Part shown: one piece after another, positions 34,384-51,579 of the stretch
Position numbering within the stretch: the first letter of the stretch is position 1
How the letters are laid out: each line of letters starts with the position of its first letter
Assembly (NCBI GenBank): GCA_963675665.1
Contig: OY776510.1
Span: forward strand, 139,840 to 203,839
Length of the DNA: 64,000 nt
Reading direction: 5' to 3'
From: Spirochaetia bacterium
GTDB taxonomy: Bacteria > Spirochaetota > Spirochaetia > UBA9216
Notes under the pieces: generated by a model
Databases searched by the model: none
What the model was told of the DNA's origin: nothing
The model's input: only the letters and a program-made list of their open reading frames with translations
Program-made: the position numbers and the translations under genes

Positions 34384-35325
34384 TCATTGGCCGCTGCCGC
34401 CAACACTTACCATAAACCCAAAATCCGTGAGAATATTTGCTGTTTTTGTAATCTCTTCAAGGCTTATCCCCTGCTGGTTTTTAAAACTGTAATCCTTATC
34501 CAACCCTTCCCATTTTGTCTCTCCGGCCTGATGGAAAGGCATCAGATGTATTTCCTCAATTCCCGCAGCTTTACAAAAGTTCCCCATAGTCTCAATTTCC
34601 CGTGTCGAATTGTTTACACCGGGAATTAAGGGATATCTTACAATAATCTTTTTCCCCTTGTCCACGGCATCACGTAAATTTTGCCGGATCAGCTTGTCAT
34701 CAACTCCTGTATATTCTCTGTGCATATCTGCATTCGGGTGTTTAATATCAAAGAGTATTAAATCAGCGGGAAGGATAACACGACGAAAATTTTCAGTTGA
34801 AGCATACCCACAGGTCTCTATTGTGATATGGATATCGTCTTCTTTCAGAGAAATTATAAGCTGTTCCGCGAAAATACTTTGTAAGGTTACCTCCCCGCCG
34901 GACAGCGTAACACCGCCGCCGCTGTTCATATAGAAAACAAGATCGCGACTGACAATTTCTCTGAGCTCATCAACCGTATAAAATTTCCCTATCAGCCTCC
35001 GCGCCTCCGACGGACATACTTTTGCGCACTCACCACAGTCGGTACATTTTAAACGATCAGTTATCAGTTTTTCATCACTGATGTATATTGCGTCAGATTT
35101 ACAGACTTCGGCACACTTTCCACAACCGATACAGGCATCCTGATCATAAATTATTTCAGGCATCATTCTGAACGTTTCAGGATTATGACACCATTTACAC
35201 CTAAGAGGACACCCCTTGAAAAAAACTGTGGTCCGGAGCCCCGGACCGTCATGGACACAGTATCTCTGAATATCCGAAATTACAGCAATGGTGCCGGATT
35301 TTATTCTATCTTGCTCCCTCATCAT
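34384..35325 (-). CDS. Glycyl-radical enzyme activating enzyme (second copy)
   Basis: It has GCPLRCKWCHNPET plus CIGCGKCAEVCKSDAI and CTDCGECAKVCPSEA. It overlaps the GRE2 stop by 4 nt. Confidence 0.85.
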   Translation of the reverse strand: MMREQDRIKSGTIAVISDIQRYCVHDGPGLRTTVFFKGCPLRCKWCHNPETFRMMPEIIYDQDACIGCGKCAEVCKSDAIYISDEKLITDRLKCTDCGECAKVCPSEARRLIGKFYTVDELREIVSRDLVFYMNSGGGVTLSGGEVTLQSIFAEQLIISLKEDDIHITIETCGYASTENFRRVILPADLILFDIKHPNADMHREYTGVDDKLIRQNLRDAVDKGKKIIVRYPLIPGVNNSTREIETMGNFCKAAGIEEIHLMPFHQAGETKWEGLDKDYSFKNQQGISLEEITKTANILTDFGFMVSVGGSGQ

Positions 35326-37598
35326 ATACCATGCTTTACCCTTTTTATCATAATATCCTGATGCATCTTCGGCAGTGCGACAAAATACCCCGAATACCCC
35401 CCTATGCGCACTCTGAGCCCCTTATAAGCCTCCGGTTGTTTCTGGGCATTACGCATCATTTCCTCACTGACTCCGGTAACAGTCAAGATGTTTCCTCCCA
35501 ACTCCATAAAGGAGCGGATAATTCCTGTTAGCCTTTGTATCCCTTCATCACCAGCTGCCTCATTTGCATTAATTTGTATATCCAGCGGGCAACCGCCGAA
35601 ATACGGCAGAAGATCCGGCTTGGTGCATGATAAAATAGCTGCTGTCGGACCGTTTGTATCACAACCGACTGACGGAGAATAATTACTGGATATTGTGGTT
35701 TCTGCACTGCGTCCGTCCGGAGAAGCCCCGCAGCGACCTCCCAATTTTGCGTAATGCTCAAATGTGCCCAACGCGAGAGGAAGCATCATCTTCGGGTCTT
35801 CCGCCTGTAAATCCTTCACATAAGCAGCTAAATCACCCAATATACGTATCATCAGCTCATCCGCATAATTATCATCGTTTCCGAATTTTAAGCCCCTTGA
35901 TGCAAGTGTTTCACGAAGAACCTCATAACCTTTAAAATTTTCACTGGTAGCATTTATTATCTGCTTCATAGTGAATTTATTTTCCTCAAAAACAAATTTC
36001 CTGATTGCGGCAAGAGAATCGACGGTATTTGCCATTCCGGAGATTATAGGCGGATACATCATATACCTGGCCCCGCCGTTCGTAATATCCAGACCGTTTT
36101 CAATACAGTCGTCAATAAATATCGACAGCATCGGGTCCGGTGCGATTGTGCTGTGCACCCCGTAGATATTTCTTCTTGTTCTGATTCCATCGCTTATCGC
36201 TTTCTTCATATGGGAAAGATAAGCATCATACAGCTGCTCAAAAGCCGTAAATTCTTTCGCATCCCCGGTATCGAGCTCACATTCTCTTGTCTTCCGAACC
36301 AGGCTGCAGCCGTTATGAAGCGTATATTCCAGCTGTAGAAGGGATTCAATATCAACATGGTTGTGATCAGTACATCCGGGGATAAGCGTTTCCCAGCACC
36401 CGTCATTTGAATAATCGCGCGCATCCTCCAGCGGCACGCCCTTTTCGGTAAATCCCGGTATTATTTTTTCATCATTATAAATGGCAGGTTCGCCGCTTCC
36501 CGAACGCAGTATTCGTGCACATTCCTCATATAAACGCGGTGGAGATCCTTTAAAAAACCGGACTGACATCACTGGAGCTATCAGTTCAAGCTTATTCCAT
36601 AACCGCAAGATCATATAAGTCAGCTCGTTTGTCGCATCGTTGCCATCCCTTTTCTGACCGCCGATTATTGCATTCATAAACCAGGAATTTGCTCCGATTC
36701 CGTAGTTCCCGGTTCCGGGCGCAGTAAAATACGGAGGGACCTTTTCTGAAAGATCGATAGCCTTTCCGCCCGGGGCAAAATCCGTTACCTCTGCATGGCT
36801 TTCCCAGGAATCCGGACTTGTCTGGATGCGTTCACTGAATTTTGCAAGCCAGGAGGCTAAAAGCTCTTCCGCATATTCCTGTGATATCAAACCGCTTTCA
36901 GTGTCCTCTTTATAGAAAGGATAGAAGTACTGGTCGCAGCGCCCGACAGGAATCAAATCCATTGTGGATTGGAGGGCAATATAAACAATCCAGAAACACT
37001 GTAATGCTTCATGAAGCGTCTCCGGCGCATTTTCCGGTGTTTTTTCAAGGATCCTTGCGATTTCCAGAAGTTCATTGCGCCTGGCTGCATCGGATTCATT
37101 CAACGATTCAAACTGCGCGATTTTAGCGTAACGTTGAGCGAAACGTTTCAGGGCATCCAGAGATATAAACATCGCTTCATATTCAGATATCTTTCTTTCA
37201 TCACTTTCAAGCTTTAATTTTTCTAAAATCTTTTCACGATAACCATGCAATCCAAGCTTTAGAAGCTTCTCAAAATTTATAGGCAGATGAGCCCATACAG
37301 AGTTTACCCCGACCCCTTTTTTTGCTGCCTCCTCTTTTTCTTCAGGGGTGGCATATTCAGGGAATTCACGTCCCAGTTCGCTGCTGGCCATTCCGGCGAT
37401 GCCGACAATCAATTCGTAAGGTCTGATATATGCCGGCATGTTATTTATCATTAAATCTATTGCCATTGCCTTGCGTATAACAATCGGCAAAGATCCGGCC
37501 TTTTCGTCCGTCAATACAGTGAGCTCACTGCCCCACCATTCTTTTTTTTCTTTGAAACCGTCAAACATGCTTTTTTTTATTTTTTCTATTCTGGTCAT
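35322..37598 (-). CDS. Glycyl radical enzyme, eliminase-class, with non-canonical radical loop (second copy, 758 aa)
   Basis: It is collinear with GRE1 (Cys loop DGCWETLIPG aligned to GCIEASIPG). The C-terminus reads LRVRIGGYSGYF rather than the canonical RVSGY. Confidence 0.75.
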   Translation of the reverse strand: MTRIEKIKKSMFDGFKEKKEWWGSELTVLTDEKAGSLPIVIRKAMAIDLMINNMPAYIRPYELIVGIAGMASSELGREFPEYATPEEKEEAAKKGVGVNSVWAHLPINFEKLLKLGLHGYREKILEKLKLESDERKISEYEAMFISLDALKRFAQRYAKIAQFESLNESDAARRNELLEIARILEKTPENAPETLHEALQCFWIVYIALQSTMDLIPVGRCDQYFYPFYKEDTESGLISQEYAEELLASWLAKFSERIQTSPDSWESHAEVTDFAPGGKAIDLSEKVPPYFTAPGTGNYGIGANSWFMNAIIGGQKRDGNDATNELTYMILRLWNKLELIAPVMSVRFFKGSPPRLYEECARILRSGSGEPAIYNDEKIIPGFTEKGVPLEDARDYSNDGCWETLIPGCTDHNHVDIESLLQLEYTLHNGCSLVRKTRECELDTGDAKEFTAFEQLYDAYLSHMKKAISDGIRTRRNIYGVHSTIAPDPMLSIFIDDCIENGLDITNGGARYMMYPPIISGMANTVDSLAAIRKFVFEENKFTMKQIINATSENFKGYEVLRETLASRGLKFGNDDNYADELMIRILGDLAAYVKDLQAEDPKMMLPLALGTFEHYAKLGGRCGASPDGRSAETTISSNYSPSVGCDTNGPTAAILSCTKPDLLPYFGGCPLDIQINANEAAGDEGIQRLTGIIRSFMELGGNILTVTGVSEEMMRNAQKQPEAYKGLRVRIGGYSGYFVALPKMHQDIMIKRVKHGI

Positions 37599-37635: not shown

Positions 37636-39531
37636 TTACTGCTGACTTATATACTCCCCGACCCAGTCAAGATTTAAGGACATCAGGCGGGTTTTTGAAG
37701 GCTCACCTTTTTCTCCGACCCACCCCGCCATTTCGTAATACTGCTCTCTTGTTTCATTAAAATCGGCTTCATTAACGACCTTCCCTTCCGAAATACCATC
37801 CGCTAAAGGAGTCGACAGTTTAAGCGGTAATTTATCGTCATCCTTATCAAATCCTTCGCGGATATTGAATGCGCGCATCATCTGCAAACCGCGCTCTCCA
37901 ACCATCAGCATCTCGTAAAGATTTGTTTCCCACCCTGTCGCAAAGTTGATAGCGTCCACCAGTTCATCAAAGCTGTACGCTCCGCCGAAACCGAATATCA
38001 TAATGCATACCGATGCTGTATCAACCAGAGCGTATGCTCTTTGAGTCCGCCAGAACAATTTCGCTTTTTCGGAGTTAAGCTCATCAGGAGCTTCAATCCT
38101 GTCGAATCCAAAACTTTTCAGCCTATTCGACAGAGGATAGGTCCCAAGGCTCGGATCCATTTCCACTGAAACATGATCCGAGCCGAAAGATACCAATGCA
38201 TATGACAACCCTAAAACGGCTTTAGTCTGCGGCATATGCGCAGGAAACTCTTTCTTTTTAACCGTGATTAAAAGCTTACTGCTGTTATTTCCGAAAATTC
38301 CGGAAAGCCTCTCCGAGCCGAGAGCGATAAGCTTGCCGAATCCAGTTCCAGTACCAGTCATTTCAGCCAACCGGATTACTGATTCGGAATTACCGAAATG
38401 GCAGTCGAATCCTTCCGTATCTTCCGCAGTGATAATTCCCTTCTCAAAACATTCCATGATAAAGCCCATTGTTGCACCGAACGAGACTGTATCCATTGCA
38501 TACATGGCGCAAATCTCATTGATTTTACAGATAGCGAGCTTATCGGATATCCCGAGATTGGAACCGCACATTCCGATTGTTTCATATTCAGGTCCACCGT
38601 ACTTTGCATCTATCCGGTCGGTCTTGCTTTTGTCCACATGACGCTTGCAGCTTTGTGCACAGGCATAACACGTGCCCGGTTTGATTATTTCTTCATTCCA
38701 GGCTTCCGGCATCAGTTTATCAACATTTTCGAATGTTCCTGATGTCCAGTTTCTGGTCGGCAATCCCCCCAGGGCGGAATTTTCCACAACACAGCCTATT
38801 GTTCCGTTCTGTTTGAAACTCTGAAGACCGACGCTTTCACGTATTCTGTTAATTCCCTTCCGGGCAAAGATTTTCATACCTTCCGGATCAAAAAAATCCG
38901 GTTTCTGCGTTCCGCGAACGGCAATGGCTCTTAAATTCTTGGAACCCATCACCGCACCGAGCCCCCCCCTGCCGTTAAAATGCGCAAGTTCATTTACAAT
39001 ATTAGCGTATCTACACAATGTTTCGCCCGCGCAGCCTATTTGTGCTACTCTGATTTTTTGATCTTCATGATAATTTCTGATATGTGCTTGCGCTTCTCCT
39101 GTTGTTTTTCCCCATATTTCCGCTGCATCAAGCAGTGAATATTCTCCGTCACAGATCCACAGATACGAAGGAGTTTCCGCTTTTCCGGTCAGAACTATCG
39201 CATCAAAACCGGCTTTTTTCATCTCAGGCGCAAAGTAACCGCCGCCCTCACTTGTCGCAATCCCGCCGGTAAGCGGAGATTTGGCTGTTACGGAATGCCT
39301 GGAAGCACCGGAAATATTTGATCCTGTAAGCGGACCGACTGTAAAAGCAATAACATTGTCCGGCGATAATGGATCAACACCCTGTTCTGTTCCCTGCATT
39401 ACATAGTAAACACCCATACAGCTGCCGCCGACATACTTACGATAGAAATCTTCATTTGGTCTTTCTATTTCAAATTTCTGTTCAGTTAAATTAATATGCA
39501 GTATTTTACCGTTGTATCCTTTCATCCTCAC
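37636..39531 (-). CDS. Tungsten-type aldehyde:ferredoxin oxidoreductase (AOR family)
   Basis: 631 aa. The N-terminus MKGYNGKILHINLTEQKFEIERPNEDFYRKYVGGSCMG is typical of AOR. It carries multiple Cys for the 4Fe-4S cluster. Confidence 0.8.
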   Translation of the reverse strand: MRMKGYNGKILHINLTEQKFEIERPNEDFYRKYVGGSCMGVYYVMQGTEQGVDPLSPDNVIAFTVGPLTGSNISGASRHSVTAKSPLTGGIATSEGGGYFAPEMKKAGFDAIVLTGKAETPSYLWICDGEYSLLDAAEIWGKTTGEAQAHIRNYHEDQKIRVAQIGCAGETLCRYANIVNELAHFNGRGGLGAVMGSKNLRAIAVRGTQKPDFFDPEGMKIFARKGINRIRESVGLQSFKQNGTIGCVVENSALGGLPTRNWTSGTFENVDKLMPEAWNEEIIKPGTCYACAQSCKRHVDKSKTDRIDAKYGGPEYETIGMCGSNLGISDKLAICKINEICAMYAMDTVSFGATMGFIMECFEKGIITAEDTEGFDCHFGNSESVIRLAEMTGTGTGFGKLIALGSERLSGIFGNNSSKLLITVKKKEFPAHMPQTKAVLGLSYALVSFGSDHVSVEMDPSLGTYPLSNRLKSFGFDRIEAPDELNSEKAKLFWRTQRAYALVDTASVCIMIFGFGGAYSFDELVDAINFATGWETNLYEMLMVGERGLQMMRAFNIREGFDKDDDKLPLKLSTPLADGISEGKVVNEADFNETREQYYEMAGWVGEKGEPSKTRLMSLNLDWVGEYISQQ

Positions 39532-39546
39532 CTCAATTCTTTAGAA

Positions 39547-39807
39547 TCAGCCGCCTGATAAAAAAGGTATTATCATAAAAGAATCCCCTTCTTTTACCGT
39601 AATATCTTCCTTAATCGCTCTAGCCAAAGGAATCCCTCTGATCATCATGGTATACGGGGTCTCGATTCCGTAATTTGTATCCAAAAAACTCGAAACATAT
39701 TGTGAAGCATTTCTGATTTCATCATCAACATAAAGCGTTTCGAATTTTACACCTGTTATATTTTTATATTCACCAATATATTCAATCGTGATTTTGACAC
39801 CTTTCAT
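39547..39807 (-). CDS. MoaD/ThiS-like small sulfur-carrier-fold protein (C-terminal GG)
   Basis: 86 aa ending ...PFLSGG. It is the first gene of the AOR-GRE2 operon. Confidence 0.55.
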   Translation of the reverse strand: MKGVKITIEYIGEYKNITGVKFETLYVDDEIRNASQYVSSFLDTNYGIETPYTMMIRGIPLARAIKEDITVKEGDSFMIIPFLSGG

Positions 39808-40111: not shown

Positions 40112-41242
40112 TTAGTAACTTCCCCTGTCGGCGCTGTAGGCATCTTTCTTCAGCTCTTTCGCCTCGTCTTTGTGCAGTGTAAACCCGTCCCCCTGGTAAC
40201 AGGCTTTGTAGGCGGCGATTGCCTCCTGACGGCGGCCGGTAATATCAAGCAATTTGCCCATCTCAAGGTTGATTTCCGAAGCAGTATAACCGCTTATTTC
40301 ATCAAAACTCAGCGACTCCCGGTAAAGCTCCACCGCACTGTTATAATCTCCCAGGGCATTACACAGGTTGCCCGTCATCTGGATATACCTTGGAAGCCAC
40401 TTGCCGGCAAGCTCTCCGCTACCCGGAGCCGTCTCATAAAAGGACAGCAGTTTTTCAGCTTCGGAAAGCCTGCCGGTGCGCAGCAGAAGATCGATATAAA
40501 AAAAGCGTACAGACAGGTTTCCCGGGAACTCCCCTAAAAACGACTCCGCAGTCCTGATGGCGGAATCGTAATCTTTTTCTATGTAGATACAGGAACTGAT
40601 ATACATCAGATTTGCCTCGTACCGGGTCAAACCGCCTTCTTTTGCCGCCCGTGCAATACCGGCAAGGCCTTCCGCCTGATCAGGTGAAAAATTGAGCCCC
40701 TTGAGCAGGGGTTTCAGATAATCCGGGGCCAGTGAAGTTGTGTAATCCTGTTCGCCCAGAATAAAATACATTTCGGGCGGAAAATTCCCCCTCTCCAGGA
40801 GTTCCACTGAAAGTTTTCGGGCCTCCACAGCAGAGGCTGCAGTATGTATCCATCGCTCACTGAGAGCATAACTCTTCATGCGGTAATAACAGAGAAAACA
40901 GGCGGCAAACGTCCCGTCAACGCCGCCGGAGTTATCCGTTTCATCGACTTTGTCTTCGGCAGTCTTCAGATCGCTGAAGATTCTGTTGAAATTTTCATCT
41001 CCGGGATCCTGCTTGACTTTCAGAAAATCATAGACAACCTGTCCGAGATCTCCCCACACATCCGCCGGATTCTCACTTCTATACTCCGCCAGAACCTCTT
41101 CAGCCTGATCAAACTTAAGATTGTAAGCCAGCTGAATAGCGTCATCGACCCGAATCGGCGCGGAAAAGGCCGATATACCCGTCAAAACCATAAAAAGAGA
41201 CAGTAACAGCCCTGTATTTTTTTTTATTTTGTGGAATTCCAT
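40112..41242 (-). CDS. Secreted TPR-repeat protein
   Basis: It has a signal peptide (LLLSLFMVLTGISAFSAP). Alternating Ala/Tyr/Leu-rich helix pairs are consistent with TPR-like repeats. Confidence 0.5.
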   Translation of the reverse strand: MEFHKIKKNTGLLLSLFMVLTGISAFSAPIRVDDAIQLAYNLKFDQAEEVLAEYRSENPADVWGDLGQVVYDFLKVKQDPGDENFNRIFSDLKTAEDKVDETDNSGGVDGTFAACFLCYYRMKSYALSERWIHTAASAVEARKLSVELLERGNFPPEMYFILGEQDYTTSLAPDYLKPLLKGLNFSPDQAEGLAGIARAAKEGGLTRYEANLMYISSCIYIEKDYDSAIRTAESFLGEFPGNLSVRFFYIDLLLRTGRLSEAEKLLSFYETAPGSGELAGKWLPRYIQMTGNLCNALGDYNSAVELYRESLSFDEISGYTASEINLEMGKLLDITGRRQEAIAAYKACYQGDGFTLHKDEAKELKKDAYSADRGSY

Positions 41243-41340: not shown

Positions 41341-44300
41341 ATGGAAAAAATGATGGAAAGTCACGGCCCCTTTTATGTCGGCTTCGATGTAGGCTCTGAT
41401 ACAATTCATACGGCAGTGGTTGACTCGCAGGGCCGCCTGGTCTGGAGCCCCGACTCTCTAATGCACTTCGGTAACCCTGTGGACGCACTGAAAGAAGCAT
41501 ACGAGGGAATTCAAGAATATTTTGAAAAAGACAGCATTGCATCATATTCGTTTACCGGCACGGCCGGGAAGCTGATTGCAGAGGTTTCAGAATCTCCCTT
41601 TTATTATGATACCATAGCCATCTCGGAGGGCGCCCGCGTTATAGCTCCCGAGTCGGAATACATCATCCATGTCGGGTCAAAGGACCCGTATTTTTTTGAA
41701 AGGGAAACCGATACGGTGATCACCGGCAAATCCTTCATATCGGACCATGGAACAGGAACCAAATGCGGCGGCGGCAGCGGCATTCTGATAAACAAACAGG
41801 TCCGCAGGTTCTTTGCAGAAGATTGTCCCGTGGAACTGGAAGACCCGCAGGCTCAGGGCAGCGATGGCGCAGCGTACCAGGCCAGGATGCGAAACAGGCG
41901 CAAGCTGCAGAAGCAGGTGGAAGAAATTCACGAAAAAGCCATTGAGACCATTAATGCCTCCAACAAGGATCTTGATGTGGGCGGACGCTGCGGCGTTATC
42001 ATTCAGTCCGATATGATACACATGCAGAATTCCGGCGAACAGATAAAAAATATCCTGAAAGGGATGTATGTACGTATAGCACGCAACTACCGAAGCGACG
42101 TTCTCGGCACGCGCACAATAGATCCGTCAAAACGGGCGGTAGCTACAGGAGGAATATTCCTTAACGGCAACCTCGCCGAGATGTTCAGCAGCGAACTAGG
42201 CATCAATCTGGAACGGCCCGACGAGCTTGAAAAGATAGGGGCAGCAGGAGCAGCCTTAAAAGCGCTTGATGATAAAAAGGAATCCGGTTTCACCATTGAA
42301 TCCCTGGACAAACTAATCGAAGCCCAGATGCGTGAAATAAAATTCGCCCCCGCCCTGAAATCAGTCCTTCATAAAGTTAAAAGTTATGATGAAGAAGATG
42401 CGGTATTCAAGTCATCCGGGGGGCTTGTAATTTTCAAGGAGCTTTCCGGAACCACAGAGGTCGTAATCGGTATTGACGGCGGGTCAACCACAACCAAAGC
42501 CCTGATAGCCGGAGCGGATGACCTGGACATTATTGCCGAAATCTGTCTTGACACCGACGGAAAGCCCCTTGAAACGGCCCAGCGGCTTTTCGCAGAAATT
42601 CGCACTTATCTGGGGAAAAAAATAAATATTCGGGGAATAGCCTATACCGGATCTTCCGGGCAGTTTTACCACCGCCTTTTTACCGACTTTTCCCTGCCGG
42701 CGGCAGACTGTGAAACCGATATTGTAAAAGACGAAATCACCTGCCATGCACAGGGCGTCAGGCACTTCAACGACAAGGTTGATACAATATTCGAGTGCGG
42801 CGGACAGGATGCAAAATTTACCGTATTCAACAAAGACGGCACGGTAAAAAAAGCCAAAATGAACCTGTCATGCATGGCAGGAACCGGGCAATCGATGAAG
42901 AACATGCTGGACATGCTCGGATATGACTTTAAAACATTCAAAGAGTACGCCCTTGCTGCAGAAAGAACTCCAATTACGGATGAAATGTGCGCCATATTCA
43001 CCGAAGCAGGGGTACTGAAACTTCTGGCATTGAACTTTCCAAAAGAAGAGATTGCCGCCGCCATAGCCCACGGCTTCATGGGCGGTTACGCAAATAAATT
43101 TGTCGGCAGCGAAACCTTCGGAGAATTTGCGTCAGCACAGGGCGGGCCCTTTAAGGGCCTGGACTGCCTGGCGGCGCTGGCGCTTCATACAGGAATTGAA
43201 ATCCACGCCTTTCCCCACCGGCAGCTTTTCGGCGCCATGGGCGCGGCCATAGTTGTCTATAATGAGATCAGACAGGCGGCCGCCGACGGGAAGAAAGCCG
43301 GTTCCAGGTTCCGCGGACTCGACCTGGCCGATGCTGCTTTTGAGAAGCGGGTTGAGAACTGTTCATCAATGATTGAAGATTCCTGCGGAACCCGCGACTG
43401 CAAGCTTCAGGTTTACAAAATCGGCGATGACGAGATTTTTTCCGGCGGGCTCTGCCCCAAGGGAAATACCGAATCTTCAACCAGGCGGAGCCCCGATTAC
43501 GTCAACCTCTACAAGAAGTTAATGAACCGTGAGCTTGAAAAATACTCGACAAGCCCCGATAACATCCTTGAAAGCGACGGAACACGTATTCTGATTCCCA
43601 GAACCCTGCACTTCCTTAACCAGCGGGGAATCTTTTTCACCTCTCTTTTTAAAGAACTTGGATTCAAAGTTATAGTCAGCCCCGAATCTAACGATGAAAT
43701 AGCCAACCTCGGGCTGGCGACATCTCATTCCGAGGCATGCTTTCCGTCAAAACTGCAGCACGGGCATGTAGCCTATCTTAAAAATTTCCTCCGACCGGGA
43801 ATCGATAAAATGTTTCTGGTTAACTACCTCGGACAGGGAGAGAAGGGCGCCCCGCAGGACCAGTCAAAGACCTGCCCCTTCATCTCGGGAGCCGGATATT
43901 CCGCAAAAGAAGCTATAAAAATAGCTACCGAAGATGCGCTGCTGCCTTTGATTCTCTTCGATGATCCTATCTACAAGCTTGAGGAAGACATCTGGCAGGA
44001 TTTCAAGCGGGCGTTCCGCAACACCCCGACACCGGGAAAAATAACGAAAAAGATAGTAAAAAAGGCTGTTATAAAGGCCATGAACAACCAGAACAGCTTT
44101 AACCGATCCGTATGGGACCAGGGGGCAAAAATAGTCGAGGGACTCAAAGCAAAGGGCCATAAAATATTTATAGGAATCGGCCGCGGTTATACCCTTTTCG
44201 ACGACAAGGCGAACTCAAAGGTCCATGAGCTGTTCGTTTCAAACGGCCTGCATTTCATTCCCGCCTTTTTTCTTGAACAGCCGGATATTGATTTTTCGGA

Positions 44301-45891
44301 TATCGTTCATCATATGTACTGGTTCCAGGGAAGGGAAATGACACGTTATAACCTGATGGTGGCCCTGGATCCCCAGCTTTACGGCGTCCGGGAAACCAAT
44401 TTCAACTGCGGTCCCGACGCAATGCTCAGTTACCATGAAACGGAAATATTCAACCGTGCCGACAAGCCGTATCTTACCCTGCAGACCGACGGCCATAATT
44501 CCAATGCCCAGTTCGGCACCCGCACCATGGCCAACTGGGAGGTTGTAAAAAACCATTGCCCCGGAAACGTCACGCTTGAAGATCTTAAAACAGCCGGTTC
44601 CGGCGAAGGAGAACTGCTCAAAAGAGTAATGGGCGTTCCGAATATGGGGCTCCAGAGTTCACAGGCCCTGGCGGCTGTCTTCCGTTCGGTCGGCGTGGAA
44701 TCAGAAGTCATGCCCACAAAAAATACCGAGACCGAATATTACAGCCGGAAATACCTGATCACCAACAACTGCCTGCCCATGCATATCCTGTTCGGGGACT
44801 GTATGGCCTGGATTCACAACAAGGTAAAAGAAGGCTATGATGCCAATAAGGACCTGGCCCTGTTTATTCCGATGGCAGGAGGCCCCTGCAGACTGGGCCA
44901 GTACCATATTATTACAAGGTATTTCCTGGACCAGAACGGTTATGGCGGGGTGCTGATTGTTAACCCGGCAGCCTACCTTGACTGGGAAAACATCCCGGTC
45001 CCGGCAAAAGAGAGAGGGATGATCCGGAAAGGTCTTGCAAAAGCAACTATAGCCAACGACATTCTCTACAATGCAAGGCTTCGCACCCGCCCATACGAGC
45101 TTAACCCCGGCGAGACCGACCGGGTAATGGATGAAATCGGCAGAGAGTTTATCGGTATAGTCAGCAACGGAAGTGATTTTGCAGACATGAAGGCCCTGAT
45201 GAACAAGGCTGCCGGGGCCGTTCAGAGAATCCCCGTAAGCAATGAGCGTTATCCGAAGGTAGGTATGTTCGGCGAAATCTTTGTCCGTTCCCACGACGGT
45301 TCAAACGAGGAATCTATCCGCAAACTTGAATCTCACAAACTTGAAGTGGCGCCCAGGCTTACCGCCGACATGCTTGAGTATAACAACAAAATGCAGCGGG
45401 CCGCATATATCAAGGAACGCAGGTTCGGTCACTGGTTTGTCTCCTACATAAAAGGCGTGTACATGCATAACGCGGAAACGGCATTCATGAAACCCTTTGA
45501 AGAGTACCTGGCGGACCGCAAACAGAAACGCCCCATTGAGATATACGACCTTTTAAGGAAATTCAATATTTTCGATATCAGGATCAAGGGAGAAGCCGGA
45601 ATATCAATAGGAACATCCTATATGTTTATGACGGACAATCCTGAAGATCTCTGCGGGGTTTATCATCTTGAGCCCTTCGGCTGTATGCAGGAATGTGTCG
45701 CCACATCCAAGATTCAAAGCCTGATAGACGTTCAGCGCGGAAAGGAAACAGATGTTTCACGGAAGGTAATCCCGTACCTGGTCGGAGTTTTCGGCGATTC
45801 GGAATTGCCCAACCTGGAAGCGGAAATGGCCATGTTTGCCGAGAAATGCTACGCCAGGCGGGAACTGATTCAGTCAAGGAGGGGAGAATGA
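41341..45891 (+). CDS. Giant fusion protein: two BadF/BadG/BcrA/BcrD-type (HgdC-like activase) ATPase domains + DUF2229-like + 2-hydroxyacyl-CoA dehydratase D-component (HgdB)-like domain
   Basis: 1516 aa. The second ATPase domain has VVIGIDGGSTTTKALI (phosphate-1), ITCHAQGV (cluster Cys) and FECGGQDAKF. The first ATPase domain (FYVGFDVGSDTIHTAVV...) lacks the Cys. The C-terminal third is HgdB-like with conserved Cys (CPKGNTE, GGPCRLGQY). AAGGA lies 6 nt before the ATG. Confidence 0.7.
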   Translation: MEKMMESHGPFYVGFDVGSDTIHTAVVDSQGRLVWSPDSLMHFGNPVDALKEAYEGIQEYFEKDSIASYSFTGTAGKLIAEVSESPFYYDTIAISEGARVIAPESEYIIHVGSKDPYFFERETDTVITGKSFISDHGTGTKCGGGSGILINKQVRRFFAEDCPVELEDPQAQGSDGAAYQARMRNRRKLQKQVEEIHEKAIETINASNKDLDVGGRCGVIIQSDMIHMQNSGEQIKNILKGMYVRIARNYRSDVLGTRTIDPSKRAVATGGIFLNGNLAEMFSSELGINLERPDELEKIGAAGAALKALDDKKESGFTIESLDKLIEAQMREIKFAPALKSVLHKVKSYDEEDAVFKSSGGLVIFKELSGTTEVVIGIDGGSTTTKALIAGADDLDIIAEICLDTDGKPLETAQRLFAEIRTYLGKKINIRGIAYTGSSGQFYHRLFTDFSLPAADCETDIVKDEITCHAQGVRHFNDKVDTIFECGGQDAKFTVFNKDGTVKKAKMNLSCMAGTGQSMKNMLDMLGYDFKTFKEYALAAERTPITDEMCAIFTEAGVLKLLALNFPKEEIAAAIAHGFMGGYANKFVGSETFGEFASAQGGPFKGLDCLAALALHTGIEIHAFPHRQLFGAMGAAIVVYNEIRQAAADGKKAGSRFRGLDLADAAFEKRVENCSSMIEDSCGTRDCKLQVYKIGDDEIFSGGLCPKGNTESSTRRSPDYVNLYKKLMNRELEKYSTSPDNILESDGTRILIPRTLHFLNQRGIFFTSLFKELGFKVIVSPESNDEIANLGLATSHSEACFPSKLQHGHVAYLKNFLRPGIDKMFLVNYLGQGEKGAPQDQSKTCPFISGAGYSAKEAIKIATEDALLPLILFDDPIYKLEEDIWQDFKRAFRNTPTPGKITKKIVKKAVIKAMNNQNSFNRSVWDQGAKIVEGLKAKGHKIFIGIGRGYTLFDDKANSKVHELFVSNGLHFIPAFFLEQPDIDFSDIVHHMYWFQGREMTRYNLMVALDPQLYGVRETNFNCGPDAMLSYHETEIFNRADKPYLTLQTDGHNSNAQFGTRTMANWEVVKNHCPGNVTLEDLKTAGSGEGELLKRVMGVPNMGLQSSQALAAVFRSVGVESEVMPTKNTETEYYSRKYLITNNCLPMHILFGDCMAWIHNKVKEGYDANKDLALFIPMAGGPCRLGQYHIITRYFLDQNGYGGVLIVNPAAYLDWENIPVPAKERGMIRKGLAKATIANDILYNARLRTRPYELNPGETDRVMDEIGREFIGIVSNGSDFADMKALMNKAAGAVQRIPVSNERYPKVGMFGEIFVRSHDGSNEESIRKLESHKLEVAPRLTADMLEYNNKMQRAAYIKERRFGHWFVSYIKGVYMHNAETAFMKPFEEYLADRKQKRPIEIYDLLRKFNIFDIRIKGEAGISIGTSYMFMTDNPEDLCGVYHLEPFGCMQECVATSKIQSLIDVQRGKETDVSRKVIPYLVGVFGDSELPNLEAEMAMFAEKCYARRELIQSRRGE

Positions 45892-46232
45892 GTCTGAAAG
45901 GAGCGCTTTTACTGCTTGCTACGGTTTCCTTCACAGTCACCGGGCAAATTCTGATGAAGAAAGGAGTAACCGCCGCAGGCAATCTTACAGCAAAAACAGC
46001 CCTTGCGTCCCCGTTTATGATCATAGGCATATTATGCTATATTTCCGGGTTTCTGGTCTGGATTAATGTTCTCAGCATACTGCCGCTTTCGATAGCCTAC
46101 CCGTCCTCCAGTATTTCGTACGTGCTTGTTATCTTTGCATCTGCAATTGTGCTGGGAGAACCGTTGAATATCTTTAAGGCAATCGGCATAGCTTTTATTC
46201 TTGCAGGGGTTTTCTTTATAAGCCGCAGCTGA
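45888..46232 (+). CDS. Small 4-TM DMT-superfamily (EamA/ArnE-like) membrane protein, translationally coupled to the giant ATPase/HgdB fusion
   Basis: Its ATG overlaps the TGA of the giant gene, and AGGAGG sits 6 nt upstream. The 114 aa have 4 hydrophobic helices and no TM1 Glu, so it is not EmrE-like. The longer 45693 start is a spurious upstream extension. Confidence 0.6.
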   Translation: MSLKGALLLLATVSFTVTGQILMKKGVTAAGNLTAKTALASPFMIIGILCYISGFLVWINVLSILPLSIAYPSSSISYVLVIFASAIVLGEPLNIFKAIGIAFILAGVFFISRS

Positions 46233-46247
46233 ACCGGACTTCGGGAC

Positions 46248-46850
46248 TCAGCTCTTCCTTCCGGTGAGCCTCGAAAACAGCGACTGCCGCTTTCCCCCTT
46301 CGGAAGCTCCGCTTTTCCCGGAAAGTTCCGAATCGGAAGATATGGCTGAAGATGTGTCCCTGTCGCCTTCTGCGGGAAGCGTGTTATCCGCCCAACCGGT
46401 GCCTACCGCAGGCACAATTCGCCTGATGAAGGGCACTGTTCCGTCAAGGCTTCTTCCCGCCTCCTGCTCACATTCCTGAAGCACTATATGCCAGGCAGGA
46501 GCAAACCCCGGGGCTCTTACCGACATTTTTTCTATTGCCGACTGGTAAACCTGAAGCTGAAGCTTCTCTCTTCTGCCCGGTTTCGCCGAAAGGTTCTGCA
46601 GCGATGTCTTAAGGTTCGAGTTCCTGTTTTTCAGGTCGTCCATTTCTTTCTTCATACCGTTGATTGACGCAGCCTCCAGGTCAATACGGTTGACAAGACT
46701 GTTTCGAAGTTCACGAACTTCTCGCTTATTCCTGGATTTAAGCACCAGGATTCTGATCCCGAAAATAAGCCATGCTATTAAAAACCCGGCTGCAAAAGCA
46801 TATACTACATTCTGATCAACCGGTCCGATTTCAAATACTGGTACTGCCAC
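46248..46850 (-). CDS. Single-pass membrane protein with coiled-coil (LapA-like topology), unknown function
   Basis: It has an N-terminal TM (VVYAFAAGFLIAWLIFGI) followed by a Lys/Arg/Glu-rich coiled coil. Confidence 0.4.
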   Translation of the reverse strand: MAVPVFEIGPVDQNVVYAFAAGFLIAWLIFGIRILVLKSRNKREVRELRNSLVNRIDLEAASINGMKKEMDDLKNRNSNLKTSLQNLSAKPGRREKLQLQVYQSAIEKMSVRAPGFAPAWHIVLQECEQEAGRSLDGTVPFIRRIVPAVGTGWADNTLPAEGDRDTSSAISSDSELSGKSGASEGGKRQSLFSRLTGRKS

Positions 46851-46935: not shown

Positions 46936-49900
46936 TTAAAAGAGACCGATCCGGGCTCCGACGCTTGGAAGAAGCACTACTTCCGGGCTGACATCCGAGG
47001 AGATCAACCAAAGCTGCCCTTCCCAAAAAACCGAAATGTATTTTAAAAAACGCCTATCTTTAAAACTTATTTTGGGCAATTCAAATTGCCCGACAACTCC
47101 AGCAAGAACAACCCCCCAGCTGTCTTCCGAATCAACGGAATTACTGCTGAAATATGAAAAATTTGCGCCCAGCGCAGCTGTTGCGGACAATGCGGAAAAC
47201 TCGGGTCCGAAAAGCCAGGAAAATGGAACCTGCGCAAGGTTTGCAAGAAGCTTGGCCCCAAATACATTACCTCCAAAACGGGAGGCACGTTCATACCCCG
47301 TATCAGGATCAATCACGGTTTCTGGCGCATAACCGTACTGCATCTGAAGTTTTACGTTGTCATCCATAAAGGTCAGACCGAGCCCGGCTGTAAAATATGT
47401 AGCGCCAAGCGCCGAGGCGTCAAAGTACATGCCCTGAATAAAACTCGGCGTACTGTAATTATCCTTGTCACCATCACGAAGATTCAGCCATACGCCTGTT
47501 AATCCGCCGTCATCTGATGCGCTTCCTGATAAAAGCAAATTCCCGAACTGCCGGGAATTTTCCTCGGGGCTTAACAGATATAAATTCGGAGCTTTTGTAT
47601 CCATAACTACGCTGCATCGCGAGTATACCATGCTGTCTTCACCGGAAATTCTAACCGCCAGATTTAACTCTCCGTCGGGTACTTCTTCGCTGTATAAAGT
47701 GAATTCCCATTTCCCGTCTTTTATTCTCAATTTTCTGAAGGTTATGCCTCCGTCAAGGCTGAATTCCAGTTTGCCCGGCTGCAGTTTTTCAGGATCCTCC
47801 GGATCAGATTCAGCCTGTTCATAACCGGCGCTTCCTTCAATTGTAAAACGGTCGGTCACATACTGCTTTTCTGACAGATTGTCAAATGTTACCCACAGGC
47901 CGGTATCGGAATAATCAAGTTCGATACTTTCACTTTCAACTTCACTGCCATACTCGTCCGTCATAAGAGATAATCTGCCCCAACCTGCAGTATAATCATC
48001 ATCCTGCAGGACGTCACAGCGAAAAAATCCGGAGGAATCTACCTCAACCGTTTTAAACAGCCTGTCGTTTAATTTAAGATGTACCCTGGAAGCCTTGTCG
48101 GGCAAAAACCCCTGAACAGAAAATCTCGGCCCGACTGATTCCCCGGGCAGGGGCGCCAGAAGTTCAGGCGGCCTGATTCCCTCAGGCAACACTTCTATTA
48201 CCCTGCTTACAGTACCGGTATTATCTGCTGAATCTACAGCCTCCGCCCTGAAGCTGTAGAATCCGGGGGACAAACCATTAATATCAAGAGTCTCCCGGAT
48301 TGTCCCCCTTGAAGAAATATCTTTTACCGTTTCCATGCCGCTTTCTTTATCATCAAGGGGCGTCAGAATTGCGGTAAGGCTTTTTAAGCTGCTGTTGTCG
48401 AACACCCTTCCGCTCAGCTCAAGGCTGCCCCTGACAGCCTCGCCGTCGGAAGGTTTTGAAAAGGTTATTTCCGGAGAAGTATTGTCGGTGTTTATAAGAG
48501 TTGTAATCATGCTGCTTACCCCGGCATTATCTACAGCCCTGATAAGGATGGATGTTATTCCGTCGGACAGAAGGCTGGTATCCAGCGGATATGTCCACAG
48601 TTCAGTCCCCTCCGCCTTCTGGAAAGTGTTGCCGTTATCATGAGATATTAAAATCGCGGCAATCCCGTTTACATCGGAGGATACTCCTTCGAGTAATACG
48701 GAACCTTTTACAACCGAATCAAGATCCGGTTTGTTTATTTGTATGAAAGGGGGATCAAGAGATACGATAAATTTTCTTTCAACTTCTTCACTCTCAAGAC
48801 CGTTAAGATCAACAGCTTTGACCCTTACCGTATTAATATCATCTTGCAGTTCGGAAAGCTTCAACGGAACCGTGAAAAGGTTGCCGCTGCCGGCTTCAAG
48901 GTAAGCGCCGTCATTAAGACTGTAACTGACGGAAGCAACACCCTCCTGATCCAGTATCAAACCGGACAGCTCAAACCCTGTTTCCGTCGCACTCATTTCT
49001 TCGGGAACCTGAATGTCCACAACCGGCATACCCGCAGAAAAATCCAAATCAAGAAGAAGAGGCTGCTCAACTTTATTTCCTGCATTATCAACAGCTGAAA
49101 CAAGGACCTGCTCCGGATTAAACCCGAGAGAAGTAAGGTTGACATCAAGATAAAAAACATTTCCATCCTGTACTGCATCAAAAATAACAGGATCGGTTTC
49201 CTGTTTTATAAAGCTTATTTCTATCTTTGAACAGGAATCAATATCGTCCACTTTGCCTGATACGGTTATCTGTTCGGCCCCTTTACTGAACGACGATGTA
49301 ATAAAAGATAACGAAGGCGCTTTTGTATCCTTCAACAGCGGAATAGAAACAATTTCGGTATTACCAAAAATATCCCCGGCTTCAAGTATTACCGTAACTT
49401 CACCATCCTCTTGATGTAGTACCGAAACCTCAACCGGATCGCTGCCTGATAAATCGGTATAAGTTTTTCCCCCGTCGACAGAAAATTTCAGGAAACCGAG
49501 AGCGGTGTTATCTGAAGCTGCCGTATCAAGCAGAAAATGTTCGCCTATTATGCTGCCGGGAGACGGCTGAGTTATTTCTATAACCGGAGAAGTTCTGTCG
49601 GAAGCTATATTCATCGGTTTGGATATCAATTCTTTTCCGTTTTCAAGAGTTGCTGTCAAAATGATGTCTTCAGCTGCGCCTTCTTCGGAAGCTGTTATCC
49701 TGAACCCGTTTCCTGAAAAGGATACATCCAGAAATTCGCCGCCCGACAGATTCATACTTTTTATCCCGCCGCCGCCCGTCCATCCGCCTAAATAATCCCC
49801 TTCGCCCAATACAATATAATCGGACGCAGCAGATTCGGGATATACAAAATACAACCCTTCCGGATCAGACAGAGAGTTGTAATAAAAGGTTGTTTGCGCG

Positions 49901-51579
49901 CTGAATTTCGTTCCGGATCCGTCCTGTCCGGTAACGGAAATATCAATCCTGTCTTCACCGGCATATCTGGGAAGTTTGATATCAAAATACGCTTCGTCAG
50001 GATTATCACCGCTTTTTGGTACAAGCTTTTTTGGAGCGCTATTGTTGAAACTCCATTCCAGACCGGAAATTCCGGCGCCCCGGACAGTTCCTGCAAGTTT
50101 CGCCTGAATTTCTGAATCAATAACCATACCGGGAAACCATTTTTCATCCTGCTCGTCAATTGTCAACGAATCAAAGATGATTTCAGGAACCGGATATGCC
50201 GTTCTGATATTCCGGCGTATTGTTTCTCCGACCATGCCGAAACTGTCCACCGCACGAATTTCTATCCGGTTATCTCCGGCGACAACCTGGTCAAGCTGCA
50301 AACTCCATGGGCCTGAAACATCAACAGATTTCCAGTCCCCACCGTTAAGTGAGTACTCAATCTTTCCGGTAGAACCGTCGTCGTCTTTCATCATGCCGGT
50401 CAAAACCGGCATGATGCCGTATATCATTTCATCAACGCTATCGGACACGCCCGGGACAGGAAGGTCCGCTTCAAGATTCAGCGGGATTCGGAATTTCCCG
50501 GATATAACATTGCCGACAATATCAGTCAACAGCATATTGATCCGGGCTTCTTTCTTTTCTCCCGTTCCGTAATCGAGCGGAAGGACCCATACCGGGTTTC
50601 CCGGGCTTAACGAAATCTCGCCTGCAGTCCCGTTGTCAGCCTCGTAGCTTAGAGAAGATATTCCTACTTCATCATATGCCCGGCCTATTAGAACAATTCT
50701 GCCGTTTACAGATTTTTCAGCTTCCGGATAAATAAGCGTCAATTCCGGCGGCCGATTGTCTATATAAAAAAGAAACGACTGTTTTGAGCGTGAACCCAAA
50801 CCGTCTACTGCTTCCAGCCAGAAAACAAATGAACCGTCCTGATGCAACCGGGTGTCTATCTTCCTGGAAAATGTCCACTGCCCGTCCGTTGTCCCTTTGG
50901 AAAGTTTTATTTCATTATACGTCTTCCCGCCGTCTTCAGAGCATGATAATTTCTCAATACCGTTTAAATCTGTAACGGTTCCTTCCAGAGCTATCTTTCC
51001 TGTTACATAACTTCCGCCGGTATGGGAAATTATATCTATCACAGGTTTAACCGTATCTTTAAAAAAGGAAACACTTACAGACTCGCTCTCGTTTTGATCC
51101 TCATCCCAGGCCCTGGCTTTTATCGTATGTTCTCCATCGTCCCACGCGGAGCAGTCTATATTCATTCTCCAGAACGAAGTTCCTTCAGCAGGGCTGAATT
51201 CCCCCTCGTCCACCGCAATTTCCACGCGCTCGATTAGTTTATCATCTACGGCCGTGCCGAGAACATTAAGTGAATTTCCTGCCCGGCTCCCCCGGGAAGG
51301 CGTTGAAATTGAAACTTTGGGAATCTGAACAGAGGGATCAATATAAATATTATACGGCCCGCCCGAACCGGAGTTTCCGGCCTTATCAACTGCATGCAGC
51401 AGAATATTATACTCTCCCGGCGGAAGATCCGAAATATCAATACTGTGCTCCCAGTTATCAAGGCCCGAAACCGGTTGCGTTTCAGAATCATCAGCCTTCC
51501 CCATTGCCCACAGGCTGATTGAAAAGAATATAAATATTATTAAAAAACCCAGTCTGCTCCTGTAGTAATTAATCATCAA
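46936..51579 (-). CDS. Giant secreted surface protein with at least 7 Ig-like repeat domains and a C-terminal beta-barrel-like domain
   Basis: 1547 aa with a signal peptide (FFSISLWAMG). There are recurring modules of about 90 aa: P(P/S)x(I/L)x(I/F)xxPxxGxxVxGxxxLxGxxxD..GIxx(I/V)xxSxDxGxT(F/Y). The C-terminal roughly 250 aa alternate hydrophobic and polar residues and end ...GARIGLF. Confidence 0.6.
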   Translation of the reverse strand: MMINYYRSRLGFLIIFIFFSISLWAMGKADDSETQPVSGLDNWEHSIDISDLPPGEYNILLHAVDKAGNSGSGGPYNIYIDPSVQIPKVSISTPSRGSRAGNSLNVLGTAVDDKLIERVEIAVDEGEFSPAEGTSFWRMNIDCSAWDDGEHTIKARAWDEDQNESESVSVSFFKDTVKPVIDIISHTGGSYVTGKIALEGTVTDLNGIEKLSCSEDGGKTYNEIKLSKGTTDGQWTFSRKIDTRLHQDGSFVFWLEAVDGLGSRSKQSFLFYIDNRPPELTLIYPEAEKSVNGRIVLIGRAYDEVGISSLSYEADNGTAGEISLSPGNPVWVLPLDYGTGEKKEARINMLLTDIVGNVISGKFRIPLNLEADLPVPGVSDSVDEMIYGIMPVLTGMMKDDDGSTGKIEYSLNGGDWKSVDVSGPWSLQLDQVVAGDNRIEIRAVDSFGMVGETIRRNIRTAYPVPEIIFDSLTIDEQDEKWFPGMVIDSEIQAKLAGTVRGAGISGLEWSFNNSAPKKLVPKSGDNPDEAYFDIKLPRYAGEDRIDISVTGQDGSGTKFSAQTTFYYNSLSDPEGLYFVYPESAASDYIVLGEGDYLGGWTGGGGIKSMNLSGGEFLDVSFSGNGFRITASEEGAAEDIILTATLENGKELISKPMNIASDRTSPVIEITQPSPGSIIGEHFLLDTAASDNTALGFLKFSVDGGKTYTDLSGSDPVEVSVLHQEDGEVTVILEAGDIFGNTEIVSIPLLKDTKAPSLSFITSSFSKGAEQITVSGKVDDIDSCSKIEISFIKQETDPVIFDAVQDGNVFYLDVNLTSLGFNPEQVLVSAVDNAGNKVEQPLLLDLDFSAGMPVVDIQVPEEMSATETGFELSGLILDQEGVASVSYSLNDGAYLEAGSGNLFTVPLKLSELQDDINTVRVKAVDLNGLESEEVERKFIVSLDPPFIQINKPDLDSVVKGSVLLEGVSSDVNGIAAILISHDNGNTFQKAEGTELWTYPLDTSLLSDGITSILIRAVDNAGVSSMITTLINTDNTSPEITFSKPSDGEAVRGSLELSGRVFDNSSLKSLTAILTPLDDKESGMETVKDISSRGTIRETLDINGLSPGFYSFRAEAVDSADNTGTVSRVIEVLPEGIRPPELLAPLPGESVGPRFSVQGFLPDKASRVHLKLNDRLFKTVEVDSSGFFRCDVLQDDDYTAGWGRLSLMTDEYGSEVESESIELDYSDTGLWVTFDNLSEKQYVTDRFTIEGSAGYEQAESDPEDPEKLQPGKLEFSLDGGITFRKLRIKDGKWEFTLYSEEVPDGELNLAVRISGEDSMVYSRCSVVMDTKAPNLYLLSPEENSRQFGNLLLSGSASDDGGLTGVWLNLRDGDKDNYSTPSFIQGMYFDASALGATYFTAGLGLTFMDDNVKLQMQYGYAPETVIDPDTGYERASRFGGNVFGAKLLANLAQVPFSWLFGPEFSALSATAALGANFSYFSSNSVDSEDSWGVVLAGVVGQFELPKISFKDRRFLKYISVFWEGQLWLISSDVSPEVVLLPSVGARIGLF

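Follow-up and report, generated by a model that had tools for sequence, protein, structure and literature searches.

The stretch analysed here, called the window throughout, comprises 64,000 nucleotides of a Spirochaetia bacterium contig (OY776510.1, positions 139,840 to 203,839 of the forward strand), and it harbours two overlapping genes, a large one for a 1516-aa fusion protein and a small one for a 114-aa membrane protein, whose domains and junction are listed below in window coordinates. It is considered fairly probable that the large protein is an enzyme of the PlsA/PlsR-Ger type that reduces the sn-1 ester of membrane lipids, and that the small one is a co-transcribed, lipid-handling, ArnE-like accessory protein.

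41341..45891, plus strand: 1516-aa fusion protein of the PlsA/PlsR-Ger type, predicted to be soluble, from the open reading frame (ORF) call and translation
41341..42450, plus strand: ATPase domain 1 (aa 1-370), an HgdC/HadI-like ASKHA domain of divergent sequence, from Pfam, HadI alignment and hhalign
42457..43275, plus strand: ATPase domain 2 (aa 373-645), an acyl-CoA dehydratase activase domain of the canonical type, from Pfam, TIGR00241 and PDB matches
43360..43455, plus strand: invariant C-X7-C-X4-C-X17-C motif (C674, C682, C687, C705), from Cys invariance
43558..44625, plus strand: catalytic half 1 (aa 740-1095), which includes DUF2229, with invariant C800, C845 and C1023
44626..45888, plus strand: catalytic half 2 (aa 1096-1516), duplicated from half 1 and diverged, in which C1144, C1183 and C1448 are invariant
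45877..45891, plus strand: translational coupling site, with the Shine-Dalgarno (SD)-like AAGGAGGGG in the 3' end of the large gene, then ATGA
45888..46232, plus strand: 114-aa ArnE-like protein with a small multidrug resistance (SMR) fold, four transmembrane (TM) helices and a single EamA domain, in a different frame from the large gene

The large gene ends with the sense codon GAA (45886-45888) and the stop codon TGA (45889-45891), and the ATG of the small gene (45888-45890) overlaps this TGA to form ATGA, with AAGGAGGGG at 45877-45885 and its GGAGG 5 nt upstream of the small-gene ATG. Both ORFs, their stop/start overlap and the internal SD of the small gene had been proposed in an original prediction made from the letters of this stretch, and all of them are borne out by the sequence. 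The layout recurs unchanged in L091 (surveyed loci are given by L numbers), a 5.38-Mb contig from the public assembly of a strain close to that of the window, where the large protein is 99.1% identical and the small protein 100% identical to that of the window, and at least five other loci carry the same overlap. A frame or assembly error was thus ruled out as the source of the coupling, because the independent L091 assembly keeps the arrangement. No promoter or terminator pattern was found at the junction in a simple scan, where the totals were not above the shuffled expectation. As part of the best explanation, the small gene would be co-transcribed and translationally coupled with the large gene.

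The presence of two BadF/BcrAD-type ATPase domains in one chain, also anticipated by the original prediction, was borne out by Pfam and hhalign. BcrAD_BadFG was matched in two stretches of the large protein, with 1.1e-8 for the domain 1 segment alone and with a match at aa 376-637 in domain 2, which additionally matched the NCBIfam CoA_E_activ domain (TIGR00241) at 136 bits, above the cutoff, and HadI, HgdC, DCCP-R and MbdQ in PDB sequence searches at 1e-14 to 1e-16. Domain 1 aligned to HadI (4eht) at 5.5e-9, and the two domains aligned to each other in hhalign with a probability of 96.9% (E 1.8e-10, 255 columns), pairing C142 (TKCGGGSG) with C511 and C217 (GRCGVIIQS) with C550. These four residues are invariant in 15 homologues (36-75% identity) and C217 falls on the cluster Cys of HadI, so both ATPase domains keep their ligands and the proposal that only the second retains a cluster-ligating Cys was wrong. 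Together they resemble an activator homodimer joined covalently into a pseudo-dimer, in which two Cys from each domain would, by homology, hold one bridging [4Fe-4S] cluster.

Downstream of the ATPase domains, DUF2229 (PF09989) was detected at aa 750-974 (E 2.6e-39) and in 15/15 aligned homologues, which together with the two BcrAD_BadFG matches confirms the Pfam architecture. The last 516 residues (aa 1001-1516) gave zero Pfam matches, the PDB sequence search of the C-terminal part returned no solved relative, and HGD-D was seen in only one of the 15 homologues, at E 0.04. The AlphaFold2 model of aa 644-1516, built with 48 homologues, reached a mean pLDDT of 89.8 and a pTM of 0.87, and Foldseek ranked BzdNO (8s02_B) and DCCP (7yzm_A) at the top with a probability of 1.0, the long structural matches being solely DCCP, HadC, MbdN/O and BzdNO. 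The HgdB/D-like C-terminal domain of the original prediction is therefore without usable support from sequence families, and it stands as far as the fold is concerned, which resembles DCCP, HadC and BzdNO. The two catalytic halves match each other locally in hhalign (E 1.6e-3, with C800 aligned to C1144), and the six catalytic Cys, invariant in the 15- and the 48-homologue alignments, are split three and three between them; the catalytic module is an internal duplication, and three Cys per half is also what is found at the cluster sites in the alpha and beta subunits of the dehydratases. The earlier view of a self-contained fusion, in which an HgdC-type, ATP-driven, electron-injecting module is joined to an iron-sulfur (Fe-S) catalytic module of the type found in benzoyl-CoA reductase (BCR) and HAD enzymes, is supported by these results. 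Between the second ATPase domain and DUF2229 lie the four Cys of aa 674-705, each invariant in 15 and in 48 homologues, in a segment of low pLDDT in the metal-free model; metal sites are usually modelled poorly when the metal is absent. The motif may well represent an extra Fe-S, Zn or other metal site, and it is undiscussed in the PlsA/Ger literature examined. The large protein carries no hydrophobic segment, with a maximum 19-residue Kyte-Doolittle mean of 1.35.

Homologues of the large protein numbered 697 at E<=1e-10, and full-length alignments (99-100% coverage) spanned 35-76% identity with the invariant Cys in common across all phyla. The identities to the window protein are 60-76% in Spirochaetes, where its relatives are annotated Spirochaetales or Spirochaetaceae, which makes the source organism an anaerobic spirochaete; 51-57% in metagenome-assembled genomes (MAGs) of Woesearchaeota, Nanoarchaeota and Methanosarcinales; 44-49% in Desulfoluna, Desulforapulum and Desulfatiferula; and 35-37% in Planctomycetota. 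The homologues at the archaeal MAG loci L010, L013, L014, L015 and L029 are nearer to the spirochaete protein than those of Desulfobacterota, and the 51-57% against 44-49% identity suggests an inter-domain transfer.

The anaerobic plasmalogen synthase consists of PlsA together with PlsR in C. perfringens (PMC12838417, PMC9702350), and of one PlsA of 1415-1640 aa in E. faecalis, L. cremoris and B. longum, with an Act1-Act2-Red1-Red2 order and conserved Cys for [4Fe-4S] (PMC12838417). A PlsA homologue, Ger (glycerol ester reductase), produces saturated sn-1 alkyl ethers (PMC13159169, PMC8788747), and its activity was shown when the genes of T. maritima and D. alkenivorans were expressed anaerobically in E. 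coli (PMC13159169). The conserved core of Ger comprises two PF01869 domains and one PF09989 domain, named "BBD" (PMC13159169, PMC8788747), and both PlsA/PlsR and Ger act on the sn-1 ester of membrane glycerolipids (PMC12838417, PMC13159169, PMC8788747). Ger homologues have been reported in Spirochaetes, Woesearchaeota, Methanosarcinales, deltaproteobacteria and Planctomycetes, among others (PMC13159169), and the taxa of the closest relatives of the window protein match this distribution. From its architecture and this taxon match, the large protein is filed as a putative Ger/PlsA-family lipid ester reductase, a new member of a known family. The original prediction had left the substrate as unknown, which is not supported, because the BBD core followed by a C-terminal reductase part is the published architecture of PlsA/PlsR and Ger, already reported in Spirochaetes and acting on the sn-1 ester. 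The family assignment by itself is compatible with a product of either kind, vinyl ether (plasmalogen) or saturated alkyl ether. A second DUF2229-like match, suggested by published papers for the plasmalogen-type enzymes, was not detected in the window protein, and the single DUF2229 match leans weakly to the "Ger architecture" of a 2026 preprint.

That the large protein is no lipid enzyme, and that the same ATP-driven Fe-S chassis acts instead on another substrate (an aromatic compound, an acyl-CoA or, like DCCP, a small molecule), is regarded as quite improbable. Its structural neighbours are indeed reductases of CoA esters and small molecules, and the lipid assignment was reached from architecture and taxon distribution. 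On the other side stand the alignment at 99-100% coverage across phyla with the same invariant Cys, the agreement of the taxa with the published Ger tree, and a recurrent partner that is an SMR protein of the lipid type. The only characterised proteins known to us with the full BBD and duplicated C-terminal architecture are PlsA/PlsR and Ger, which also counts against a non-lipid substrate. In favour of one, the homologues of Kuenenia and Thermodesulfobacterium gave no ether lipid in E. coli, according to the supplement to bioRxiv 10.1101/2022.04.21.487849.

The small protein was confirmed as a four-helix, EamA/ArnE-like membrane protein, as originally proposed, by a Pfam EamA match (8.6e-9) and an AlphaFold2 model with four TM helices (pLDDT 90.9), for which Foldseek returned EmrE (TM-score 0.71-0.73) and also Gdx with a probability of 1.0. 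The NCBIfam models of ArnF (52.5 bits, cutoff 99) and ArnE (44.8 bits, cutoff 92) both scored under their cutoffs, and the NCBIfam SMR models scored just 16-21 bits. A 32-member profile aligned near end-to-end with E. coli ArnE in hhalign (97% probability, E 7.5e-11) and with ArnF at 95%, and the small protein is, by these comparisons, homologous to ArnE/ArnF and not their orthologue. No E or D was found in TM1 of any of the 32 family members, and Lys/Arg are only slightly biased across the membrane (+2). Export of cationic drugs is unlikely because the central glutamate is absent, and a cationic drug exporter was rejected as a candidate. Loss of the central Glu is described as typical of the glycolipid-flippase subtype, whose members are mostly singletons (PMC9574504). 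An exhaustive HMMER scan of 1.84 billion representatives delimited a narrow subfamily of three 50%-identity clusters at 128-171 bits, followed by a gap to 98 bits, from where about 1400 small EamA proteins form a continuum at E<=1e-10. The two closest outsiders that were examined adjoin a GT2 glycosyltransferase with a sugar nucleotidyltransferase, and a UbiA prenyltransferase, respectively, so the wider family occurs in lipid-linked contexts. No arn-type operon genes (polyprenyl-phosphate glycosyltransferase, ArnT) were present around the pair in the window or at the related loci that were read.

The pairing of the two genes recurs in relatives. Among the distinct small-gene contexts with enough flank to be informative (n=20), the small gene adjoins a ger-like gene in 16, in three arrangements, as listed below with the four contexts lacking ger; TPR denotes a tetratricopeptide repeat gene and SDR a short-chain dehydrogenase/reductase gene.

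Downstream of the ger-like gene, with overlapping or abutting start (8 contexts): window/L091, L002, L081, L083, L087, L090, L093, L100
Upstream on the same strand, in the order TPR, small, ger (1 context): L101
Divergent, 0.2-1.2 kb from the ger start (7 contexts): L001, L006, L019, L084, L085, L089, L105
No ger in the available flanks (4 contexts): L088 and L095 (TPR and small gene only), L097 and L098 (small gene, then two SDR genes)

The overlap junctions of five of the eight downstream contexts were read directly (L002, L081, L083, L087 and L090) and are ATGA, GTGA or TGATG, the remainder being derived from coordinates; four of the five are preceded by AAGGAG, AAGGGG or AAGGAA, and L083 carries a different SD-like element, cGAGGAAG. 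The overlap-type coupling is concentrated in a subclade whose large proteins are 72-77% identical to that of the window, and the ger products of the divergent layout are 62-69% identical to it. In 80 species-representative ger loci, the small gene lies within 6 kb (<=6 kb) in four, all of them spirochaetes, and a hidden Markov model of the small protein found no match in the flanks of the 76 others. The membrane coupling claimed by the original prediction is accordingly real and recurs in relatives, and it holds for part of one spirochaete clade, not for the family as a whole: downstream of most homologues the small ORF is not conserved, and downstream of the closest ones it is. A membrane neighbour is also less surprising than had been assumed, because the substrate of the family is a membrane lipid. 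In Desulfobacterota and other clades, the small downstream ORFs proved unrelated to the small protein. At the Planctomycetota-type ger loci L035, L046, L050-L052, L057, L059, L060 and L070, a convergent gene for an ABC-2 permease of about 280 aa and six TM helices lies directly downstream, followed by an ABC ATPase gene in L070, the sole locus checked; this gene was rejected as a counterpart of the small membrane protein, being an ABC-2 permease with its ATPase and no DMT protein.

A third gene recurs beside this pair in the closest relatives, and in the window it is the following:

40112..41242, minus strand: 376-aa TPR protein, divergent from the large gene, with an N-terminal signal-peptide-like segment, from Pfam TPR families

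Its homologues adjoin ger and/or the small gene in L002, L003, L011, L081, L083, L088, L095 and L101. In L088 (1838-3529) and L095 (418-2043), the small gene stands next to the TPR gene, transcribed divergently and without an intervening ger, an arrangement that looks as if ger had been lost or had never been inserted. Two extended-SDR epimerase/dehydratase genes lie 3' of the small gene on the same strand in L090 (5858-7862), L097 (about 6350 onward) and L098 (1195-3206), after the ger-small pair in the first and after the small gene, with no ger nearby, in the other two.

Linkage kept through three gene orders is a classical sign of a shared functional connection, and the preferred reading has both genes act in the remodelling of membrane or envelope lipids in one spirochaete lineage. 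Several observations weigh against this reading and the lipid assignment behind it. No other lipid-synthesis gene lies nearby in the 64-kb window; none of the named characterised PlsA, PlsR or Ger proteins, including that of D. alkenivorans, appeared among the named matches (search with the Desulfatiferula homologue P0072, cluster members); and the published PlsA-versus-Ger split rests on weak Pfam fragments, the HGD-D fragment being the one seen here in 1/15 homologues. Six spirochaete ger loci with ample flanks and at least 60% identity (L003 at 76% identity, L004, L007, L008, L009 and L026) moreover lack the small gene within 6 kb, it is found in no archaeal, Desulfobacterota or Planctomycetota ger locus examined, and the four loci with the small gene and without ger, where it stands beside the TPR gene or two SDR genes, would fit a Ger-independent sugar-lipid flippase.

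The main rival builds on the last of these points and holds that the small protein is unrelated to the enzyme, being a flippase for polyprenyl-phosphate sugars or glycolipids in envelope glycosylation that is adjacent to ger through lineage gene order and tight packing. The nearest outsiders in their GT2 with nucleotidyltransferase or UbiA contexts, the SDR pair after the small gene in L090, L097 and L098, the lack of ger in L097 and L098 and likewise in L088 and L095, and the lack of the small gene in the six spirochaete ger loci and in every non-spirochaete ger locus examined are each in line with it. A linkage in 16 of 20 contexts with three rearrangements, at Ger identities of 62-76%, would be unexpected by chance, the stop/start overlap is kept in several independent loci, and no glycosyltransferase or sugar-nucleotide gene lies beside the pair in the window, L002, L081 or L083; such a rival is possible and on the unlikely side.

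Another alternative, raised by the original prediction, takes the small protein as a membrane anchor that tethers the soluble enzyme in a stoichiometric complex and is no transporter. Translational coupling often goes with complex formation, the two genes are linked, and an enzyme with no hydrophobic segment of its own must nevertheless reach a membrane lipid, all of which would suit a tether. Seven divergent contexts and one upstream context indicate that coupling is not required, the majority of homologues do without the small gene, and the characterised PlsA and Ger function in E. coli without a small membrane partner (PMC13159169, PMC12838417), so that a tether is given little probability. 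The scattered absences and the four contexts without ger lead to the conclusion that the small protein is an accessory, dispensable for catalysis, in line with the ability of PlsA and Ger to work unaided in E. coli.

In the favoured explanation, that of a lipid ester reductase with an accessory lipid-handling protein, ATP hydrolysis by the tandem HgdC-like domains, paired as a pseudo-dimer around one bridging [4Fe-4S] cluster, would pass an electron of low potential to the duplicated BCR/HAD/DCCP-like catalytic module. Like the characterised members of its family, the enzyme would then, under anoxia, turn the acyl ester at sn-1 of a membrane glycerolipid into an sn-1 ether by reduction. The small SMR-fold protein would most likely act as a dimer that handles a lipid substrate, and it would most likely translocate or present a lipid, be it an ether lipid or its glycolipid derivative. 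The narrower proposal that it is a dedicated partner of the ether-lipid enzyme, handing over the sn-1 ester region or flipping the ether lipid or ether glycolipid to the outer leaflet, is doubtful.

One of the known systems closest to the window enzyme is Ger, or "modified PlsA" (T. maritima Tmari_0479/AGL49404 and D. alkenivorans SHJ90043), and the two agree in architecture: a single polypeptide of about 150 kDa with two BcrAD_BadFG domains, DUF2229 and a C-terminal part scarcely seen by Pfam. The strictly anaerobic action of Ger is counted as a further likeness, whereas a partner membrane protein is not described for Ger and the window enzyme gene has the small gene as its neighbour. With PlsA/PlsR (C. 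perfringens CPE1194-1195; E. faecalis EF1327, L. cremoris, B. longum) it shares the Act1-Act2-Red1-Red2 order, the conserved [4Fe-4S] Cys and the BCR/HAD ancestry, and with the PlsA of E. faecalis, L. cremoris and B. longum also the fused single-gene form. The hosts of PlsA/PlsR are Firmicutes and Actinobacteria, whereas the window is from a spirochaete, and the PlsA of facultative anaerobes has a TetR/AcrR regulator upstream (PMC9702350), where the window has the TPR protein gene.

ATP-driven injection of low-potential electrons is common, by homology, to the window enzyme and to HgdC/HadI with HgdAB/HadBC, BzdNOPQ, MbdONQP and DCCP/DCCP-R. The modules of the HgdC/HadI, BCR and DCCP systems are separate, whereas the window enzyme has all of them in one chain; the HgdC/HadI activator is a homodimer, whereas that of the window would be a covalent pseudo-dimer of two diverged domains; and HgdC/HadI-type and BCR systems act on a CoA thioester, whereas the substrate in the window is probably a membrane lipid ester. 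The catalytic part is just 8-14% identical to the DCCP, HadC, Mbd and Bzd structures, and the four-Cys motif is additional to the HgdC, BCR and DCCP systems. The small protein is like ArnE/ArnF (PmrL/PmrM), the undecaprenyl-phosphate-L-Ara4N flippase, in its size of about 110 aa, four TM helices and SMR fold, and in a TM1 GQ motif, a P(L/V)xIAYP motif and the lack of the central glutamate (PMC9574504). ArnE/ArnF form an E/F pair, whereas the small protein is a singleton with no arnBCADT nearby and is linked to the gene of a putative ether-lipid enzyme. EmrE and Gdx, its best structural matches in the PDB (TM-score 0.6-0.73), bind protons and substrates with the TM1 Glu that is missing in 32/32 members of the small-protein family.

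A clade-restricted, flippase-like neighbour of ger appears to be unreported, and because no mention of a partner membrane protein was found in the PlsA/Ger literature examined, the ArnE-like neighbour constitutes a modest novelty. Anaerobic synthesis of ether lipids (plasmalogens and alkyl ethers) bears on the "lipid divide" between bacteria and archaea, on environmental lipid biomarkers and on the microbial production of plasmalogens, and the descriptions so far give it as a step that takes a single enzyme. They leave unexplained how an Fe-S enzyme that is soluble and sensitive to oxygen gains access to a bilayer lipid, and the small flippase-like protein is a concrete candidate for this role. 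That it is found beside ger again and again hints that the minimalist SMR fold may handle a class of substrates new to it. If it were a dedicated partner, it would be the first accessory factor of PlsA/Ger and the first SMR-fold protein acting on glycerolipids; if the linkage were incidental, the locus would represent one more spirochaete Ger/PlsA homologue.

Further genes noted in the window are as follows.

25559-28895, minus strand: glycyl-radical enzyme and radical-SAM activase pair, beside a sugar ABC transporter
34384-37598, minus strand: second glycyl-radical enzyme and radical-SAM activase pair, beside a HAD phosphatase and the aldehyde:ferredoxin oxidoreductase (AFOR) gene
37636-39531: AFOR gene
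39547-39807, minus strand: 86-aa ORF immediately upstream of the AFOR gene, ending in ...SGG like the MoaD/ThiS sulfur carriers, with no Pfam match
46248-46850, minus strand: 200-aa ORF convergent on the small gene, with the two stops 15 nt apart, one N-terminal hydrophobic segment and a weak LapA-domain match
46936-51579 and 51592-57021, minus strand: adjacent giant proteins of 1547 and 1809 aa with Ig-like Big_7 / Big_13 domains

No homologue of the 200-aa convergent ORF was found in the related loci, and the 1547-aa and 1809-aa Ig-domain proteins are probably surface proteins.

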